Origin: Phenylobacterium sp.
Lineage (GTDB): Bacteria; Pseudomonadota; Alphaproteobacteria; Caulobacterales; Caulobacteraceae
Reading direction: 5' to 3'
Length of the DNA stretch: 64,000 nt
NCBI RefSeq assembly: GCF_030693405.1
Contig: NZ_JAUYAW010000052.1
Span: 13,590 to 77,589, forward strand
This document shows, one piece after another, positions 55,083 through 64,000 of the stretch. The translations under genes were made by a program, and so were the position numbers. The number at the start of each line of letters is the position of its first letter. Positions within the stretch are counted from its first letter, which is position 1. A model generated the notes under the pieces. The model saw only the letters and a program-made list of their open reading frames with translations, was not told the DNA's origin and did not search any database.

Positions 55083-56060
55083 TTAAGCCAGCTCGAACTG
55101 CCCGACGCGCTTGCGCAGGATGGCCTCGGCGTCGGCCATGATCTTGTCGATCAGGTCCTTCACGGTCGGGATGTCGTGGATCAGGCCCGCGACCATGCCG
55201 CAGGACCAGCCGCCGGCGTCCATATTCCCGTCGCGCATGATGGCCGGATAGACGCCTGCCACTTCCGGGGCGATGTCGGCGAAGGTGAGGGCGGCGCCCA
55301 TCTCCTTCTCCTTGGCCAGCAGGCGCTCCACGCCCGCGTTCACCAGCACCCGCTCGGTATTGCGCAGGGGCCGCATGATCAGCCGGGTGTCGAGCTCGCT
55401 GGCCTCCACCAGGGCCTGCTTCACATTGGGATGCACCGGCGCCTCCTGGGTGGCGATGAAGCGGGTGCCCATATTGATCCCGTCGGCGCCGAGGCAGAGC
55501 GCCGCGGCTAGCGACCGCCCATCGGCCATGCCGCCCGAGGCCAGGAACGGGATCTCCAGCTCCTCGGCCGCCCGGGGCAGGAGGATGAAGTTCGGCACGT
55601 CGTCCTCGCCCGGATGGCCGCCGCATTCAAAGCCGTCGACGCTGACCGCGTCGCAGCCGATGGCCTGGGCCTTCACCGCATGGCGCACGGCGGTGCACTT
55701 GTGGATCACCTTGATGCCCGCCTCTTTCAGGGCCGGCAGGTACTTCTGCGGATTGTTGCCCGCCGTCTCGACGACCTTGACGCCGGACTTCACGATCGCC
55801 TCGACAAAGCCCGGATAGTCCGGCGGCGTCACCGAGGGCAGGAAGGTCAGGTTCACCCCGAACGGCTTGTCGGTCATCCCCCGGCACCGGGCGATCTCGG
55901 CGGAAAGCTTCTCCGGCGTTCCCTGGGTCAGGCCGGTGATGATGCCAAGCCCGCCCGCATTGGACACGGCCGCGGCCATCTCGGCGAAGCCCACATAGTG
56001 CATGCCCCCCTGCACGATCGGATGCTCGACGCCGAGCAGGTCAGTGATGCGGGTCTTCAT
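55083..56060 (-). CDS. Nitronate monooxygenase / 2-nitropropane dioxygenase family
   Basis: HPIVQGGM, AVSNAGGLG, DGFECGGHPG, ASGGMADG and MGTRF motifs. Confidence 0.9.
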   Translation of the reverse strand: MKTRITDLLGVEHPIVQGGMHYVGFAEMAAAVSNAGGLGIITGLTQGTPEKLSAEIARCRGMTDKPFGVNLTFLPSVTPPDYPGFVEAIVKSGVKVVETAGNNPQKYLPALKEAGIKVIHKCTAVRHAVKAQAIGCDAVSVDGFECGGHPGEDDVPNFILLPRAAEELEIPFLASGGMADGRSLAAALCLGADGINMGTRFIATQEAPVHPNVKQALVEASELDTRLIMRPLRNTERVLVNAGVERLLAKEKEMGAALTFADIAPEVAGVYPAIMRDGNMDAGGWSCGMVAGLIHDIPTVKDLIDKIMADAEAILRKRVGQFELA

Positions 56061-56284
56061 GGTCGGCTCCTCCCGGGGGCTGTGTTTGTTGGGGCGGAGT
56101 CGTGCGCGGAATGGGGGGCGTGTGCAAGTGGGGCTGGGGCGAATGGGTCGCGAGTGGAAGGGTGGTCACATCGCCTCGTCGTGGAACCGTTCGCCTGTGG
56201 CTCACGCGCCGCCACTCTTCAAAGCAGACAACGAGGACCCTGGCGCTATAGTCACCAGCCAGCCAAGGGGGCATGCGGCGAAAA

Positions 56285-58207
56285 ATGACGGTCCAGATTA
56301 AGCCGACTCTCTTTGACGATCGATTTCTCGACAAGCACGCGGGCGCGATAATCAGCGACCTCAGTGTGGCGCTCGTTGAGCTGGTCGCAAACGCTTGGGA
56401 CGCCTACGCCACGCGGGTCGAGATTCAGTGGCCCGATGGCTCTCGAGACCGGCTATTTTCGATTAAGGACAACGGGAAGGGGCTGACCCGAGAGCAGTTC
56501 GCCCTGCGCTGGCGTACGCTCAATTACAATCGAGTTGCGGCAGAAGGCGAGTTTTCGCTTCCGCCCTCGGACCTTGGCAGCAGCAAGCCGCGACGTCCCT
56601 ATGGACGAAATGGGCAAGGGCGCTTAGCAGGCTTTGCCTTTTCTGATCCATACGAGGTGATCACACGAGCTGGCGGCGATGAGGTCACGTTCGAGGTCAG
56701 GAGATCGAGTGGAGCGCTGCCCTTCGACTGGCGAGAGATCTCCAGCAAATCAGCAAGCGACCATGGTCTTGAAATCCGCGCCACCCATGCAACGCGAACA
56801 CGGACCAACGCTGCGGCTGTTCGTGAAATGCTCGGTGCCCGGTTCCTGACGGACCCAGATTTCACCGTCGTCGTCGATGGCGTGACGGTGACGTTCGACG
56901 ACATCCCGAACGCCTTCCTACAGGAGAGCTTCGTCGGTGTGCCCGGCCACGGGCAGGTTCGAATTGTGATGATCGATGCGCAGCACGCGGACCGAACCAC
57001 GCGCCAACATGGAATCGCCTGGCACGTCAACAACCGCCTCGTCGGCGAGTGCGGATGGCTCGGGAGCGACTACAGTCGCATCCTTGACGGTCGCACTAGC
57101 GAAGCCAAGCGCTTCACCTTCATTGTGACGGCGGACTTTCTGGCATCAGCCAACGCCGTTCAGCCGGACTGGAGCGGGTTCAACCCTAAGAATGAAGTTT
57201 GGAAGCTCACACAGTCCTTGGTCCAAGACCGGATTCGCGAGCAGATCTTCGCCCATGGCGCTCAGCGACGAAAGGAGACCAAGGAGGCGGTCAAGGAGCA
57301 CCATGCCAACACAATCCGCAAAGCGCCGCCGCTGGCGCGGGAGCGGTGGAATGAGTTTGTCGAAGCAGTCGTCGACAGTTGTCCGGGCATTTCGGGTGAG
57401 CAGGTCGAACAGGTCGCGGGGATTCTCGCGAACCTCGAAGTTTCCCGTTCTCGCTACGGTCTCGTCGACAAGCTCCATCGCATGCAACCGAACGAGCTGG
57501 ACGAGTTAGACGCTATCCTGGGTGATTGGAGCGTGGCGACAGCCAAGGTGGCGCTCGATGAGATCCAAAATCGACTGAAGCTAATCGCCGAACTTCACGC
57601 CAAGTTGCGAGACGAGCGTGCCGACGAGGTTCGTGAACTGCAGCCCTTGATGGAACGCAGTCTGTGGGTATTCGGGCCTGAGTTCGAGACCATTGAGTTC
57701 ACCTCCAATCGCGGCATGTCGGAAGTTATTCGCAAGCTTCTGGGCCGCAAAGTGCGCGGCAGCCTGAACCGGCCAGACTTCGTCATCCTTGATGACGGCA
57801 GCGTCGGCCTGTTTTCTCGACCGAAATACGGTGACGGCTATGAGGTCGAGGGTATCGAGCATCTGGTTGTCGTTGAGCTTAAGCGACCCGGAATAGCGAT
57901 CGGCATGGACCACAAGAACCAGGCCTGGAAGTATGTCACTGAGCTTCTCGATCAAGGGCTGATCGAGGAGTCGACCAAGGTGACTTGCTTCGTCATGGGC
58001 TCGAAACTTGCGCCGCGAGAGCGAATTCGCGAGGAAGGCTCAACACGGATTGTTCCGCTTGCCTATGACACGTTTGTCAGGCGAGCTGAGTCGCGCATGC
58101 TGAACCTCTACGAGCGTCTTAAGGGTGCGCCGTTCCTCGCCGACCTTCAGGTCGACGTGGAAGGGTTTTTGGCACAGCCACCTCACCGCGGCCTGGATCT
58201 CGACTAG
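56285..58207 (+). CDS. GHKL (HSP90/MORC-like) ATPase fused to a C-terminal PD-(D/E)xK nuclease-like domain
   Basis: N-box ELVANAWDA, G1 KDNGKG, G2 GRNGQGR; C-terminal RPDFVIL...VVELKRP; lower GC than host genes. Confidence 0.75.
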   Translation: MTVQIKPTLFDDRFLDKHAGAIISDLSVALVELVANAWDAYATRVEIQWPDGSRDRLFSIKDNGKGLTREQFALRWRTLNYNRVAAEGEFSLPPSDLGSSKPRRPYGRNGQGRLAGFAFSDPYEVITRAGGDEVTFEVRRSSGALPFDWREISSKSASDHGLEIRATHATRTRTNAAAVREMLGARFLTDPDFTVVVDGVTVTFDDIPNAFLQESFVGVPGHGQVRIVMIDAQHADRTTRQHGIAWHVNNRLVGECGWLGSDYSRILDGRTSEAKRFTFIVTADFLASANAVQPDWSGFNPKNEVWKLTQSLVQDRIREQIFAHGAQRRKETKEAVKEHHANTIRKAPPLARERWNEFVEAVVDSCPGISGEQVEQVAGILANLEVSRSRYGLVDKLHRMQPNELDELDAILGDWSVATAKVALDEIQNRLKLIAELHAKLRDERADEVRELQPLMERSLWVFGPEFETIEFTSNRGMSEVIRKLLGRKVRGSLNRPDFVILDDGSVGLFSRPKYGDGYEVEGIEHLVVVELKRPGIAIGMDHKNQAWKYVTELLDQGLIEESTKVTCFVMGSKLAPRERIREEGSTRIVPLAYDTFVRRAESRMLNLYERLKGAPFLADLQVDVEGFLAQPPHRGLDLD

Positions 58208-58378
58208 GGATAGGGTTTGGTGGCCGCCGTAATTCGACGGCCGCAGACAACGCATTTCGAACTTGAATGGGGCTGTCGGTATTCAGCTCTTGAGCCGGGT
58301 TTCCATGCCCCTCTTCTAGAATACCGCCGCCCAAACCAGCAAAAGTGCGGCAGAACTCAAATTGTGCGGAGGAGAGCC

Positions 58379-58873
58379 ATGTACGAGGAGTGGCTGCAGG
58401 CCAGGGCTCCGGGATACAAGTCTCTGGCGCCCGCGGAACGGGACGCGATTGCCGGCTTCCTCCACTTCTGGGCCTTGTTCGAGGGGCGTCTCCTCAACGA
58501 GCGTGCCGGGCCAGACAAGATTTGTCGCTTAGCTGCGCGCTGGAACAGCGATGATCTAGCCGACTCAGCACCCGTTTGCGCCGCACTCAACTACTGGCGA
58601 AATCGGTACTTTGCTGGAGGAGAGCCCAATGGGCGCTTCGAAAGCCTTCTGTTCAGGCCTAACGATCATGAAGAACTGGTCGTAGATGTGATGGCCGGTG
58701 CGCCTGACGACGCAGAAAGCGTCATGGCAGCGGTTCTTCTGATCATCTACCGACTTCGAAACAACCTCTTCCACGGTCTGAAATGGCAGTACGGCCTGGC
58801 AGATCAGGAGGGCAACTTCCGGCACGCAAACCGAGTGCTTATGGAGGTGCTGGACCGATACGGAGACCTTTAG
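58379..58873 (+). CDS. Small helical protein with a HEPN-type RxxxxH motif
   Basis: IIYRLRNNLFHG; GGAGGAG SD; 164 aa; lower GC than host genes. Confidence 0.65.
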   Translation: MYEEWLQARAPGYKSLAPAERDAIAGFLHFWALFEGRLLNERAGPDKICRLAARWNSDDLADSAPVCAALNYWRNRYFAGGEPNGRFESLLFRPNDHEELVVDVMAGAPDDAESVMAAVLLIIYRLRNNLFHGLKWQYGLADQEGNFRHANRVLMEVLDRYGDL

Positions 58874-58975
58874 AGGGGCCTTTGTGATGCGTCCCCGTGG
58901 GCGGCTACCTTCTCCGTGGATTCAGCGCATAACCGGACCGGACCGGGCGCTGCTGGTGCATCGACTCGCCCAACG

Positions 58976-59000
58976 AAAAAGGGCCGGCTTTCGCCGACCC
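58976..59000 (-). terminator. Rho-independent terminator after trxA
   Basis: Minus strand GGGTCGGC-GAAA-GCCGGCCC-TTTTT. Confidence 0.8.
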
Positions 59001-59026
59001 CTTCTGCCATCTCTCAGGCCTCAGCC

Positions 59027-59362
59027 TTACGCCGCCGGCTGCACGCCGGCTTCGGAGAGCCATTCGAGGATCTTCTGCTTGGGCATGGCGCCGACCTTCA
59101 TGGACGACATCTGGCCGTCCTTGAACAGCATCATGGTCGGGATGCCGCGGACGCCGTAGCGCGACGGGGTGGTGGGGCTGTCTTCGATGTTCAGCTTGGC
59201 GATGGTGACCTGGCCGGCCAGGTCGTCGGAGATTTGCTCCAGGGCCGGGGCGATCTGCTTGCAGGGGCCGCACCACTCGGCCCAGAAGTCCACCAGGACC
59301 GGGCCTTGCGCCTGCAGCACGTCTTTCTCGAAGGACTCGTCGGTGACGGTGACGGTGCTCAT
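59027..59362 (-). CDS. trxA: Thioredoxin
   Basis: DFWAEWCGPCK and GVRGIPT motifs. Confidence 0.97.
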   Translation of the reverse strand: MSTVTVTDESFEKDVLQAQGPVLVDFWAEWCGPCKQIAPALEQISDDLAGQVTIAKLNIEDSPTTPSRYGVRGIPTMMLFKDGQMSSMKVGAMPKQKILEWLSEAGVQPAA

Positions 59363-59441: not shown

Positions 59442-62400
59442 TCAACTCCTGGACCGGAGATCAGCCAGGGCCTGGGCCATCAGGAATTCTGGAACCGCCA
59501 TCAGCTTCGGACCATCGGTCCACACCAGGGCCGCCTCGATGGCCCGGCCGGGGAAGACCTCGGCCAGCACGGCGGCATAGAGCGCCATCTGGCGAATATA
59601 GGCGGGATCGGCGTCTTCTATTGCGTCGGGCGAGGGGCGGTTGGTCTTGAAGTCGGCCACCAGAACCCGGTCTGCGCGCACCACCAGGCGGTCGATGCGG
59701 CCGGAGATCTGCAGGCCTTGGGGCAGGGCGGCGGCTCGCCCGGCGATGGCCACCTCGGCCCGGCCGTCGGCTGCGAACACGTCGGCGAAACGGGGATCAG
59801 TCAGCACGGCGAGCGCCGCGCCCGCCATCTCGGCCCGCTGATCGTCGGTCAGGTCGGGCTCGCGGGCGAGGATGGCTGTGGCCGCGGCGTCGCGGTCCTC
59901 CAGGGGCAGATCGGGCAAGATCTGCAACAGCCGGTGGATCAGCTCGCCGCGGCGGAACCGGCCAAGCCCGCCGACGCGGGCGAGAGGCGAGGGCGCCAGG
60001 ATCTCGTCGGCCTCGCCCAGGTCGGACGGCGAGGCGAAGCGGGCCAGGGGATCTACGCCTGCATCGGCCCGCGCCCAGGCCGGCAGGGGGGCGGTGGTTT
60101 CGCTCGGCGCGGCGCCGCGGCCCAGCACCTGCGGGTCCTCGCCGAACCGCTGGGCCTCGACCTGGCCGCAGGCGGCGGGGCGCAGATGGGGGCCTACACC
60201 CTCATGGGCGAAGCCGGCCTGGATGGCCGCCCACCAGCCTTTGAGGTTCTCTTCCTTGGCCTTGGCGGCGATCCGGCCGCAGATCACCAGCCGGTCGCGG
60301 GCGCGGGTCAGGGCCACATAGAGCAGGCGATAGGCCTCCTCCTCGTCCTTGCGGGCGCGCAAGTCCCGCGCCGCCGTCGAGGCCGCGCAGTCCAGCGTCT
60401 TGGACGGGCACCAGAGGAAGCCGCCGTCTTCGGTTTCCAGGAGCGGCGAGCCGCGGCCCAGGCCCGAGAGCGTCGTCTCGGGCAGGAAGACGATGGGCGC
60501 CTCCAGCCCCTTGGCGCCGTGGGCGGTCATGACGCGGACCTCGTTGCGGGCCGCCTCCATCTCGCGCTTGACGGTGATGTTGAGCCCGGCGAGCGCGTCG
60601 GCCAGGCCCTCCAGGTCGCAGATCCCCCGCTGTTCGGCGGCCTGGGCCTGGACCAGGAACTCGTCCAGGGCGTCCTCGGCCTCGGTCCCCAGCCTGCGCA
60701 CGATCCTCTGGCGCATGGAGGCGCCGGCGCCGTCCCGCAGGGTGAGCAGCCGGCCGTAAAATTCGAACGGCCGCCGGGTCCGGGCCTCAGCCTGGGCGGC
60801 GGTGAGGAAGGCGAAGGCCTGTGTCCAGTCGGGGCGCTCATGGGCGCGGGCCTGCAGGGCGCTCCACAGGTCGCCGGGCTTGCGGGGCTTGGCCAGGGCG
60901 TAGAGGGCGTCGTCGTCCAGGCCGCAGAAGGGGCTCTTGAGCAAGGCCGCCAGGTTCAGCTCGTCCTGCGGGAACAGCACGAAGCGGGCCACGGCCAGCA
61001 AATCGTCGAAGATGATGTGCTCCGACAGGGCCAGCCGGTCGGCGCCGGCCACGGGCACGCCCCGGCGTTTCAGGGCGCGCAGGATGTCCTCGAACAGGGC
61101 CTTACGGCGGCGCACCAGGATCAGCACGTCGCCATAGCGGGCCGGCCGCCAGGCGCCGCGGGTTCCGTCGGATGCGTCCAGGTCCTTGTCGAACACCCCA
61201 TCGCCCCGGGCCACCAGGTCCTCGATCTCGCAGGCGATGTTCTCGGCCAGGCGGCGATTGGCGCTGGCCGGGCCTTCCACGTCCAGGGGCGCGTCCCAGG
61301 CCTCGCGCTCCTCGCCCTCGGGCTCACGCTCCAGGGGCCAGATGTCGACACAGCCCCGGTGGTCGCGGCGCATGGGGATGTGGCGCACGGCGTCCTCGCC
61401 CCGGGCCGGCGGCACGCCGCCCTGGGTTTCGGGCGCGGAAAAGACCGCATCGACAAAGCTCAGCACATCGATGGTGGAGCGCCAGGAGGCGGCCAGCGGC
61501 ACGCTCTCCGCCCGCGCTCCGGCGTCGTGGATGCGTGTGAGATAAGCCTCGGTCTCCAGTTCGAGACGTTCTGGCGCGGCGCCCTGGAAGGAATAGATCG
61601 ACTGCTTCTTGTCGCCGACCACGAACAGGCTGCGCAGGGCCTCGCGTTCGCGCCCCTCGCCTGCGAAGAACTCGGCGGTCAGCGCGCTGAGGATCTCCCA
61701 CTGTTCCGGCGCGGTGTCCTGGGCCTCGTCCAGCAGGATGTGGTCGATGCCGCCGTCCAGCTTGTAGAGCACCCAGGCGGCCATGGGGCGCTCGGCTACC
61801 AGGGCCCGGGTCTTCTCGATCAGGTCGCCGAAATCCAGCGCGCCGGCGGCGGCCTTCTCCTGGCCGTAGGCCGTCAGATAGGCCTTCGCCAAGACCAGCA
61901 CATAGGCGCTGTCCCAGGCGATGTTGGCGGCCCGCACCTGGTCCCGCGCCGTGGCCAGGCGGTCCTGTTCGTCCAGCAGGGCCTGGCGCAAGGGCTCAGC
62001 AGCCCCCAGGGCCTTGGTCTTGGCCACCCAGGTGGCCGGCGTGCCCTCGCCCCCTTGGGTGAACAGCGCCTTGAGCGCATCGGAGAGGGTCGCGTGCGGG
62101 TCGGCCGCCACCGCCGCAAGCGTCTGCGAACAGGACTGGTCGGTCTTGCCGCCCAGCGCCAGCACCTCCGCCGCCTCCCGCCACAGCGCCCGGTCGAGCT
62201 CGGCCATGGCGTCCGCCGCCACGGCCTCCGGATCGGCCTCGCCGTCGAAGCCGCAGGTCTGCCAGATCCAGGCGAGCGCGCCCTCCAGTCCGCCCTCGCG
62301 GGCGACAAAGGCGTCCAGGGCGCCGCGACGGGCCTCGAAGGTGGCGAACATCTGCTCGAAGGCGCGGAAGTCGAGACTGACCGACAGCCGCGCATAGGCC

Positions 62401-62939
62401 TGGGCCACGGCGCCGGTCCCGGTGAGCGCATGGCGGGCCACGTCCTGGCGGGCGGCCCGGGCGATCAGGGCCGCGGCCGGATCGTCCATCACCCGGAAGC
62501 CCGGCGAGATCCCCGCCTCCAGGGGGAAGCGCCGCAACAGCTTCTCGCAGAAGGCGTGGATGGTCTGGATCTTCAGCCCGCCCGGCGTCTCAAGCGCCTG
62601 GGCGAACAGGGCGCGCGCGGCCGACAGGCGGGCGGCGTCATAGTCGCTGGCCTTGCGGCCCTCCAGCCTGGCCAGCGCCTGGCGCAAGGCCGTATCATCG
62701 CACACCGACCACTGGCCCAGGAGGTCGAACAGCCGGCGCTGCATCTCGGCGGCGGCGGCCTTGGTGTAGGTGACACACAGGATGGCGGCGGGCGCGGCGC
62801 CGGCCAGCAGCAGCCGGGCCACCCGGTCGATCAGGGTCTTGGTCTTGCCCGAGCCGGCATTGGCGGTGACGAAGGCCGAGAGGTTCGGATCGGCCGCCGT
62901 GCGCTGGGGATCGATGCCGATGTCTATGACTGGGCTCAT
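59442..62939 (-). CDS. addA: Double-strand break repair helicase/nuclease AddA
   Basis: ANAGSGKT, LDEAQDT, VGDKKQSIYSFQGA, MTAHGAKGLE, LYVALTRARD and nuclease motif GRIDRL..ADFKTN. Confidence 0.96.
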   Translation of the reverse strand: MSPVIDIGIDPQRTAADPNLSAFVTANAGSGKTKTLIDRVARLLLAGAAPAAILCVTYTKAAAAEMQRRLFDLLGQWSVCDDTALRQALARLEGRKASDYDAARLSAARALFAQALETPGGLKIQTIHAFCEKLLRRFPLEAGISPGFRVMDDPAAALIARAARQDVARHALTGTGAVAQAYARLSVSLDFRAFEQMFATFEARRGALDAFVAREGGLEGALAWIWQTCGFDGEADPEAVAADAMAELDRALWREAAEVLALGGKTDQSCSQTLAAVAADPHATLSDALKALFTQGGEGTPATWVAKTKALGAAEPLRQALLDEQDRLATARDQVRAANIAWDSAYVLVLAKAYLTAYGQEKAAAGALDFGDLIEKTRALVAERPMAAWVLYKLDGGIDHILLDEAQDTAPEQWEILSALTAEFFAGEGREREALRSLFVVGDKKQSIYSFQGAAPERLELETEAYLTRIHDAGARAESVPLAASWRSTIDVLSFVDAVFSAPETQGGVPPARGEDAVRHIPMRRDHRGCVDIWPLEREPEGEEREAWDAPLDVEGPASANRRLAENIACEIEDLVARGDGVFDKDLDASDGTRGAWRPARYGDVLILVRRRKALFEDILRALKRRGVPVAGADRLALSEHIIFDDLLAVARFVLFPQDELNLAALLKSPFCGLDDDALYALAKPRKPGDLWSALQARAHERPDWTQAFAFLTAAQAEARTRRPFEFYGRLLTLRDGAGASMRQRIVRRLGTEAEDALDEFLVQAQAAEQRGICDLEGLADALAGLNITVKREMEAARNEVRVMTAHGAKGLEAPIVFLPETTLSGLGRGSPLLETEDGGFLWCPSKTLDCAASTAARDLRARKDEEEAYRLLYVALTRARDRLVICGRIAAKAKEENLKGWWAAIQAGFAHEGVGPHLRPAACGQVEAQRFGEDPQVLGRGAAPSETTAPLPAWARADAGVDPLARFASPSDLGEADEILAPSPLARVGGLGRFRRGELIHRLLQILPDLPLEDRDAAATAILAREPDLTDDQRAEMAGAALAVLTDPRFADVFAADGRAEVAIAGRAAALPQGLQISGRIDRLVVRADRVLVADFKTNRPSPDAIEDADPAYIRQMALYAAVLAEVFPGRAIEAALVWTDGPKLMAVPEFLMAQALADLRSRS

Positions 62940-64000
62940 GCCTCGCCCTCGCCGTCTTCGCCGCTGGTGGACCATTCGAACACCCGGGCCAGGTGGGCGT
63001 AGTCGCCGGCATAGTCATGGACGAACTGTGGGGCGGTCCGCGAGAGATAGGCCCGCTCAGGATCATCGAACTGGATCAGCAGGCGCAGGGCGCCGGCCAG
63101 GGCTTGTTCGGCGGCGTCATGGCTCTCGTCGCCTGCCGCCCCGCGGATCTCCACCTTGCCGGCCGGCTTGCGGCCGGTGACCTGCAGATAGACGAGGTCG
63201 CCGGGGGGCCTGGCCGGCACGCCCTCGAACCCGCCCCGGGCGACAATGGCCGCCGTCAGGGTCAGCTGCGGGGAGAAGCCGGTCTCGACCATCTTCTTCG
63301 AGGGCGCCTGGCCGGTCTTGTAGTCGAGGACGTGGGCATAGCCGTCCGGGCCGGTCTCGATCCGGTCGGCCTTGGCGGTCAGGGTGAAGTCCCGCAGGCC
63401 GGCGCGAACCGTGATCTCGCCCTTGGCCTCCACATGAATGTCGCGGCCATCGGCCCTTCGCTCGGCCTCCAGGGCGACCACCCAGGCGGCCGCCTCCTGG
63501 GCCAGGGCCTGCTCGCGGGCAAGGGACTCCGGCGGGGCGCCGGCGGCGACCAGAGCCTCCAGATAGAGGGCGGCGAACTCCCGGGCCGGCTCCGGCGGCA
63601 GGGCCTTGGGGTGGCGCCTGGCGAAGGTTTCGAAGGCCTCGTGGATGGCCGTGCCCCGGGCGCGGGCCTCCACCGGCTCATCCGGCCGCTCCAGCCGGTA
63701 GAGCTTCAGGATGTCCCGGGCCCAGACCGCATAGGGGTCCCGGGTCAGGGACTCGATCCGGGTGACGGCGAACTGGCTCGGCCGATCGGCCACCGGTGGA
63801 CGCGGGGCCGGGCGGCTGATCGGCTCATAGTCCGGCGCCGCATCCAGGGCTCTGGCCCAGTCCAGCAGGTCGGGGCGGCCGGGCAGGGTGAGGTCTGCGC
63901 CCCTGGCCAGGGTCTCCAGCCGCCAGAGCCAGCGGGACTTCACCGTCGGCTGGCCGTCCCGACGCTCCGAATGCAGCAGCACCACATTGGGGGCGCAGGC
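62936..64000 (-). CDS. addB: Double-strand break repair protein AddB, C-terminal part; 5' end lies outside the window
   Basis: LTRDPYAVWAR and nuclease motif KADRI..LDYKTG..PQL; 4-bp overlap with addA. Confidence 0.93.
   Translation of the reverse strand, partial: ACAPNVVLLHSERRDGQPTVKSRWLWRLETLARGADLTLPGRPDLLDWARALDAAPDYEPISRPAPRPPVADRPSQFAVTRIESLTRDPYAVWARDILKLYRLERPDEPVEARARGTAIHEAFETFARRHPKALPPEPAREFAALYLEALVAAGAPPESLAREQALAQEAAAWVVALEAERRADGRDIHVEAKGEITVRAGLRDFTLTAKADRIETGPDGYAHVLDYKTGQAPSKKMVETGFSPQLTLTAAIVARGGFEGVPARPPGDLVYLQVTGRKPAGKVEIRGAAGDESHDAAEQALAGALRLLIQFDDPERAYLSRTAPQFVHDYAGDYAHLARVFEWSTSGEDGEGEA

Follow-up and report, generated by a model that had tools for sequence, protein, structure and literature searches.

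The subject of this analysis is a pair of genes lying on the + strand of a 64,000-nucleotide (nt) stretch of DNA from Phenylobacterium sp. (NCBI RefSeq assembly GCF_030693405.1, contig NZ_JAUYAW010000052.1, positions 13,590 to 77,589 of the forward strand); the whole stretch is called here the window, and all positions are counted from its first letter. Gene 1 is very probably a stand-alone nuclease of the Shedu family, belonging to the subtype that carries a GHKL ATPase, and gene 2 an unrelated neighbour, both of them being independently mobile cargo of a genomic hotspot. A first-pass annotation, made from the sequence alone, had described the pair as a candidate new anti-phage system composed of a GHKL ATPase-nuclease fusion and a HEPN protein, with two independent defence genes side by side as its fallback. 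The features of the two genes, all on the + strand, are the following (aa, amino acids; AF2, AlphaFold2):

56285-58207: gene 1, 640 aa, very probably a Shedu nuclease of the GHKL-ATPase type (type I-D)
56318-56794: GHKL ATPase domain, residues ~12-170, with motifs I-IV (E32 codon at 56378-56380, N36 codon at 56390-56392)
56810-57184: beta-rich, transducer-like middle domain, residues ~176-300, from AF2 secondary structure and Foldseek
57194-57694: helical region, residues ~304-470, a possible clamp or linker, from AF2 helices
57716-58123: Shedu-type PD-(D/E)xK nuclease domain, residues ~478-613, from hhalign against SduA_C proteins
57776-57778, 57875-57877 and 57881-57883: nuclease codons D498, E531 and K533, respectively
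58379-58873: gene 2, an all-helical protein of 164 aa with a HEPN-like motif, member of a large uncharacterised family of mobile elements
58751-58783: gene 2 motif R125-L-R127-N-N-L-F-H132-G-x-K135, readable as Rx4H or Rx6H

Gene 1 is linked to Shedu through its C-terminal nuclease domain. In a conservation set of 22 homologues, sharing 53-80% identity, the residues R496-P-D498, E531-L-K533 and Q546 are invariant. Proteins passing the Pfam SduA_C threshold were collected from 700 genomes belonging to the same class and phylum, 13 canonical ones were aligned, and the last 210 residues of the gene 1 family were used as the hhalign query against them, giving a match of 97.6% probability (P = 4.8e-12) over 150 columns. 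In this alignment D498, E531-x-K533 and Q546 of gene 1 fall on the D, ExK and Q columns of Shedu, and the PD...ELK motif that the first-pass annotation had read as a C-terminal nuclease lies on the catalytic columns of the family. A protein from the same class (L037), itself a GHKL fusion, passes Pfam SduA_C with 27.5 bits; it aligns with residues 33-576 of gene 1 (E = 2e-18, 21% identity) and is the nearest GHKL-SduA_C relative among those tested.

The N-terminal part of the protein is a GHKL ATPase head. Pfam HATPase_c_3 matches residues 26-139 of gene 1 with E = 5.6e-14 and is found in 22/22 homologues, where all four nucleotide-binding motifs are invariant: motif I (E32-x3-N36-x2-D39), motif II (D62-x-G64-x-G66), motif III (G107-x2-G110-x-G112) and motif IV (H160-G161). 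The AF2 model, of moderate confidence (predicted local distance difference test, pLDDT, 74.7), gives the order of the domains as GHKL, a beta-rich segment (176-300), a helical segment (304-470) and, at the C-terminus, an alpha/beta domain (478-613), the helices of the third segment spanning residues 304-339, 349-365, 371-387, 390-398, 405-413, 417-441 and 448-463. A profile search of the PDB matched MutL and Hsp90; Foldseek against the same database aligned the model with N-terminal-plus-middle fragments of Hsp90/TRAP1, MORC2/3/4 and MutL (E ~1e-10 to 1e-11, 360-480 columns), and these alignments support the presence of a GHKL domain followed by a transducer-like one. The earlier domain calls for gene 1, namely a defence-related GHKL ATPase-nuclease fusion with intact GHKL motifs and a helical middle, were therefore right. 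With regard to its start, an in-frame ATG at 56273 is an alternative that would add 4 residues.

The same combination of domains has been described in a named system. Type I-D Shedu has been defined as Shedu with HATPase_c_3 and a GHKL-associated middle domain (Gu et al., bioRxiv 10.1101/2023.08.10.552793), and VcSduA, a GHKL-type Shedu of V. cholerae, guards E. coli as a single gene from T1-like phages (Adams et al., Nat Microbiol 2025, PMC12137116). VcSduA protects at all multiplicities of infection tested, which was read by its authors as direct restriction sparing the host cell, and its activity depends on the Glu of the ATPase (E27A) as well as on the Lys of the nuclease (K557A) (PMC12137116). 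Proteins of this type had earlier been named paraMORC3 (Iyer, Abhiman & Aravind 2008) and are present in ~1.2% of genomes (PMC12137116). Gene 1 shares with VcSduA and type I-D Shedu the GHKL motifs I-IV, the GHKL-associated middle ('N24'), the helical region and the DUF4263/Shedu PD-(D/E)xK domain; the size is similar (~640 aa), and E32 and K533 of gene 1 occupy positions comparable to those of E27 and K557 of VcSduA. Both are single genes, with no conserved partner or methylase, found in mobile or defence islands. The difference is that the alphaproteobacterial clade of gene 1 scores under the Pfam SduA_C threshold. The pair had been presented as matching no named system; this does not apply to gene 1, which matches the described single-gene, GHKL-type (type I-D) Shedu represented by VcSduA.

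Comparison with more distant proteins delimits the subtype. Canonical SduA from Bacillus cereus or E. coli (Doron 2018, Loeff 2023, Gu 2023) is likewise a stand-alone gene with a homologous C-terminal nuclease (D...ExK...Q), but its small N-terminal domain serves to sense DNA ends, it assembles into tetramers and it lacks an ATPase, while gene 1 would presumably be regulated through ATP-driven dimerisation of its GHKL heads. With MORC, MutL and Hsp90 gene 1 has in common the N-terminal ATPase with all ATP-binding motifs and the transducer-like domain; unlike them, it has no CW domain, zinc finger or MutL C-terminal endonuclease, and carries a fused PD-(D/E)xK domain instead. Nor does it have a eukaryote-like chromatin role.

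A further relationship to be weighed is that with the GHKL-containing Type II restriction enzymes BbrUII/HgiDII (NCBIfam NF050001), which gene 1 resembles in its N-terminus and in total length, or with a modification-dependent (Type IV-like) enzyme. The NCBIfam match reaches E = 1.2e-24, the PADLOC REase_II model hits gene 1 with 2e-8, and the earliest description of such proteins placed them in restriction-modification contexts (Iyer et al. 2008, cited in PMC12137116). Nevertheless, both matches are confined to the GHKL N-terminus (residues 24-211) and score far under their cut-offs, the NCBIfam one covering residues 28-211 with 86.9 bits against a family cut-off of 550, while the C-terminus aligns with the Shedu nuclease domain. 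Moreover, no methyltransferase is encoded at the window locus or in the neighbourhoods of the gene 1 homologues; the flanking genes, searched through Pfam and translations, are a nitronate monooxygenase gene, trxA and addA, and on this point the earlier annotation was accurate. That gene 1 is a restriction enzyme of either kind is therefore very improbable. As a GHKL-type Shedu, and by analogy with VcSduA and the Shedu literature, gene 1 would work through GHKL heads that dimerise on ATP, with the transducer-like domain and the helical middle forming a clamp that may engage DNA; ATP binding and hydrolysis would then license the PD-(D/E)xK site (D498/E531/K533) to cut the invading DNA. The immunity conferred would be direct, as distinct from abortive infection, and would need neither a partner protein nor a methyltransferase.

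Gene 1 and gene 2 are unrelated, independently mobile and horizontally acquired, and they stand merely side by side. Among 155 species genomes encoding the exact RLRNNLFHG motif of gene 2, the best 80 loci were examined over ±8 kb, and 0/80 held a gene 1 homologue; conversely, a gene 2 homologue was present in 0/80 metagenome loci of gene 1, 63 of which have at least 700 nt downstream. The two genes were together in 0/13 further contexts, so that the pair is absent from all the loci sampled. In seven genomic contexts gene 1 has unrelated neighbours, among them the trb operon of an integrative and conjugative element (ICE) with a nucleotidyltransferase (NTase)-conflict gene, a Gabija-like pair with DpnII, and housekeeping genes, and never gene 2. 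Its closest homologues (80% identity) have no gene 2, and no neighbour family recurs around gene 1 in more than 4 of 85 loci. In a sample of 400 genomes from the same class, the genome of the window was the only one with gene 1, and one other had gene 2. A direct view of the separation is offered by a metagenome contig of 2,365 nt (Ga0208243_1010381, here L175), which is 100% identical to window positions 55967-58235, that is, to the start of the monooxygenase gene, the left junction and gene 1, and diverges at 58236, 28 nt past the gene 1 stop, to continue with a ribosome-binding site and the ATG of a different gene (MTGKRKRYTA...). Unless it is an assembly chimera, this contig represents a natural allele with gene 1 and without gene 2. 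For gene 2, DNA similarity to the nearest relatives (71-74%) stops at the limits of the coding sequence.

The arrangement and composition of the two genes bear on the same question. The co-oriented open reading frames (ORFs) reported earlier are present on the + strand at 56285-58207 and 58217-58873, and the full second ORF would leave 9 nt after the gene 1 stop. The true start of gene 2 is however the ATG at 58379, because the homologues are all ~164 aa long and begin at that Met, which is preceded by its own ribosome-binding site, GGAGGAG; the gap thus becomes 171 nt. Between the genes there is no Rfam match, no credible small ORF and no convincing terminator or promoter. The content of guanine plus cytosine (GC) is 59.0% for gene 1, 58.6% for gene 2 and 59.3% for the cargo as a whole, compared with 68.8% for the whole window, and at third codon positions (GC3) it is 69% and 67% for the two genes against 91-94% for the flanking ones; with such low values, both genes are clearly foreign. 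The low GC noted by the first-pass annotation is therefore real, while its values of 56-57% were slightly below those measured.

On these grounds it is extremely improbable that the two genes form one two-component system, with gene 1 as an ATP-gated DNase sensor/effector and gene 2 as a HEPN RNase that backs it up or acts as a second effector. In favour of such a system, the genes lie next to each other in the same orientation, have the same atypical GC and GC3 and make up together the whole cargo of the hotspot, and two-component Shedu variants do exist, e.g., KELShedu (PMC12577705). Against this stand the nil co-occurrence in 160 sampled loci and the 13 further contexts, the different gene that lies 3' of gene 1 in the contig of identical sequence, the 171-nt gap with a separate ribosome-binding site ahead of gene 2, and the distinct neighbourhoods of the two families. 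The reading as a two-gene system fails and is not to be carried forward as such; the fallback of two independent defence genes side by side is supported by the lack of co-occurrence and of a conserved partner for either family.

Some observations speak against the picture of a GHKL-type Shedu lying beside an independent gene, and must be set against the evidence above. On the side of the nuclease, Pfam SduA_C gives gene 1 12.5 bits (E = 0.17) for a cut-off of 27 bits and matches, marginally, just 2/22 homologues, and the top 50 Foldseek matches of the whole model lie on the GHKL side, with none on the nuclease. The kinship of gene 1 with VcSduA is argued from the architecture and the shared Shedu nuclease domain, as opposed to a direct alignment. 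On the side of independence, the divergent part of contig L175 amounts to 96 nt at a contig end, where a chimeric assembly could account for it, and the near-identical GC and GC3 of the two genes are compatible with a joint arrival.

The site in which the two genes are found is a hotspot between a nitronate monooxygenase gene and trxA. It was delimited by blastn against three sister genomes of the same genus, whose AddA and monooxygenase are 93-96% and 98-99% identical, respectively, to those of the window. Conservation ends on the left at ~56129 (after ...GTGTGCAAG) and resumes on the right at ~58968 (CGAAAAAGGGCCGGC, trxA terminator). The features of the site and of its flanks are:

55083-56060, - strand: nitronate monooxygenase gene, left flank (Pfam NMO, 8e-63; 98-99% identity in the sister genomes)
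56130-58968: variable cargo cassette, holding exactly gene 1 and gene 2 (blastn against the three same-genus genomes)
56225-56252, + strand: promoter-like site 5' of gene 1, within the cargo (consensus scan, 9/12 matches; weak, 0.8 sites expected by chance)
58236-58378: module boundary and upstream region of gene 2 (the metagenome contig departs from the window at 58236)
~58972-59003: trxA terminator (from sequence)
59027-59362, - strand: trxA, thioredoxin, right flank (translation, WCGPC motif)
59442-62975: addA, beyond trxA (Pfam), with addB also on the right side

Farther left of the monooxygenase gene lie an HxlR regulator and an SDR gene. Between identical breakpoints, the four genomes of the genus carry four differing cargos:

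Window: GHKL-Shedu (gene 1, probable assignment) and gene 2
G410 (locus L016): a 182-aa ORF and AbiU (PADLOC, 1e-168)
G412 (locus L017): a TPR-PIN protein of 1,320 aa (PF20698)
G402 (loci L018/L019): a membrane protein, a lipoprotein and an unknown protein, split across contig ends

Neither an integrase nor a flanking repeat was found at the trxA/monooxygenase hotspot, and the simplest explanation would be that the cargo is swapped by homologous recombination in the conserved flanks. The metagenome contig described above places a second recombination point within the cargo, at 58236, between gene 1 and gene 2. The 182-aa ORF that precedes AbiU in G410 (L016, 5674-6222) has no family match and could be an AbiU accessory gene.

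Among the homologues of gene 1, two contexts deserve a description. In Agrobacterium tumefaciens (L004, 362-8610) the homologue belongs to an island with a Gabija-like pair, formed by an OLD-TOPRIM ATPase and UvrD, and a DpnII/MboI gene; also encoded in this island, in convergent orientation, is an AHJR-like protein of 217 aa with a faint HepT-like match. In an ICE of Sphingobium nicotianae (L001, 4348-7929) the homologue comes after the gene for an NTase-conflict protein of 504 aa, where the operon for the trb type IV secretion system (TrbI-DUF2274-AlpA) ends; this is the cargo region of the element.

Gene 2 belongs to a family of considerable size. When 1.84 billion representatives were searched with its profile, the matches comprised 1,765 clusters at 50% identity with E <= 1e-3, and 1,206 with E <= 1e-10, nearly all of single-domain proteins of 160-180 aa. 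The RNNLFH string pointed out in the first-pass annotation is part of RLRNNLFHG, invariant in 28 homologues; in a set of 60, R125, H132 and G133 show no variation and R127, N128 and N129 are conserved in at least 90%. Among the other residues, F27, E35 and R76 are invariant and W31, Y77, K135, Q143 and N146 nearly so. AF2 models the protein with confidence (pLDDT 90.4) as all-helical, with the motif at the end of a helix (112-131) that is followed by a terminal helix. Gene 2 shares with the HEPN superfamily (HepT, AbiU2, Csm6/Csx1) an Rx4-6H motif in which Arg is followed by Asn and His by Gly, the all-helical build with one terminal helix after the motif, and the association with defence and mobile elements. 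It differs in having no HEPN match in Pfam, in the PDB or by fold, and no antitoxin partner of the MNT type.

The searches behind this difference covered sequence and structure. Pfam, NCBIfam and PADLOC gave no match for gene 2; HEPN families of Pfam matched 0/28 members at E <= 5; a profile search of the PDB found nothing, even with a 60-sequence profile; and Foldseek against PDB and BFVD reached at best E = 0.76, with no HEPN structure among the top matches. The families that do match are PHROGs of unknown function, 27260 in 28/28 members and 19013 in 19/28. No match was found by tblastn in deposited phage genomes, and a literature search for the motif string returned no papers. One relative bears the name 'HEPN AbiU2-like' in UniRef, which prompted an hhalign comparison with HEPN_AbiU2, HepT and HEPN (PF05168), whose alignments were built from genome hits; all three gave a probability of <1%, in a test that likewise yielded no matches among the known HEPN families themselves. 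The sole stretch aligned with HepT in this low-power test is lRNNLFHG against mRnrLiH. The earlier claim that gene 2 is a HEPN protein has the motif and the helical content in its favour; matches in Pfam, PDB and Foldseek are missing. Judged from motif, helicity and context, the HEPN label is tentative, with somewhat less than an even chance of being right.

With respect to its distribution, the gene 2 family, whose clusters come from many phyla, is carried by 155 species genomes, 10 plasmids (7 conjugative) and 33 IMG/VR viral contigs. Islands on ICEs and plasmids that hold it also encode a Ppl-like TrlF ATPase and a T5orf172/GIY-YIG protein of the PDC-S57-like kind, as well as PD-T7-1 and Lit (peptidase U49), and other homologues are found near CBASS (cyclic-oligonucleotide-based anti-phage signalling system), SIR2-STAND, Abi_C and AbiJ_NTD4 genes, as well as in prophage-like regions. 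These contexts point to phage-host conflict. The family as a whole has no conserved partner: neighbours of 315, 355, 346, 320 and 503 aa are unrelated to one another. The most likely activity of gene 2 would be that of a homodimeric HEPN-like RNase effector switched on by infection, a weakly supported suggestion in which the role in defence is likewise putative. The fuller proposal, that the family is a stand-alone immune effector of ~165 aa, a minimal HEPN-like RNase (RLRNNLFHGxK) with no partner or antitoxin and a fold without a neighbour in PDB or BFVD, is rather doubtful. In an alternative, gene 2 would be no HEPN RNase defence effector but a mobile-element factor, be it anti-defence, regulatory, or an immunity or accessory protein, and RxxxxH would be coincidental or would belong to another active site. 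In favour of it are the failure of every sequence and fold method to detect HEPN despite a confident model (pLDDT 90), the lack of an antitoxin-like partner, uncommon among free HEPN toxins, the conjugative nature of 7/10 plasmids of the family, the homologues adjoining trb/tra and relaxase regions of ICEs, and those on the 33 viral contigs. This alternative is nonetheless unlikely, in view of the invariant R/N/H motif, in which the polar residue following Arg and the Gly following His are typical, of the motif being the only segment of gene 2 that aligns with HepT, of the chromosomal site of gene 2 in the window, whose other alleles are Abi-type defence genes, and of homologues that elsewhere sit inside known defence-gene arrays.

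Certain branches of the gene 2 family have recurrent neighbours of their own. In one subclade, with 42-46% identity to the protein of the window, a T5orf172/GIY-YIG gene of ~167 aa (PDC-S57-like in PADLOC) lies 30-70 nt upstream of the gene 2 homologue, in loci whose outer contexts vary (L050, L054, L055, L058-L060, L062, L070, L072, L073, L077, L089, L107, L108, L134, L135). The GIY-YIG gene, absent from the window, and the gene 2 homologue may constitute a two-gene module distinct from the arrangement of the window. Two of these loci are islands ending in the gene 2 homologue: L055 (4048-8492) contains a PD-T7-1-like gene, Lit/peptidase U49 and the GIY-YIG gene, while L134 (plasmid pSinA, 821-6501) contains a Ppl-like 'TrlF' ATPase, a TauD dioxygenase, an unknown protein of 312 aa and the GIY-YIG gene. 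In Rhodobacterales and Hyphomicrobiales (L047, L053, L057, L067, L068, L071) the homologues are found in a prophage-like or gene transfer agent-like context (Phage_attach, DUF6441) and share a conserved upstream ORF of ~385 aa and a downstream ORF of 210 aa.

Clustered at 90% identity, the family of gene 1 falls into more than 1,144 groups, most of them from Alphaproteobacteria and annotated just as 'ATP-binding protein'. The SduA_C model of Pfam and the Shedu models of PADLOC miss the nuclease domain of this alphaproteobacterial clade, and defence annotators therefore probably under-count the GHKL-Shedu subtype. Its probable assignment adds to GHKL-type Shedu an alphaproteobacterial clade with over 1,100 clusters (90% identity). 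The gene 2 family, large and unannotated, is found on mobile elements among known defence genes and would be cheap to test. Finally, the site itself, a defence hotspot free of integrase with four alleles in one genus, provides a small natural example of how defence genes may be shuffled via flanking homology.

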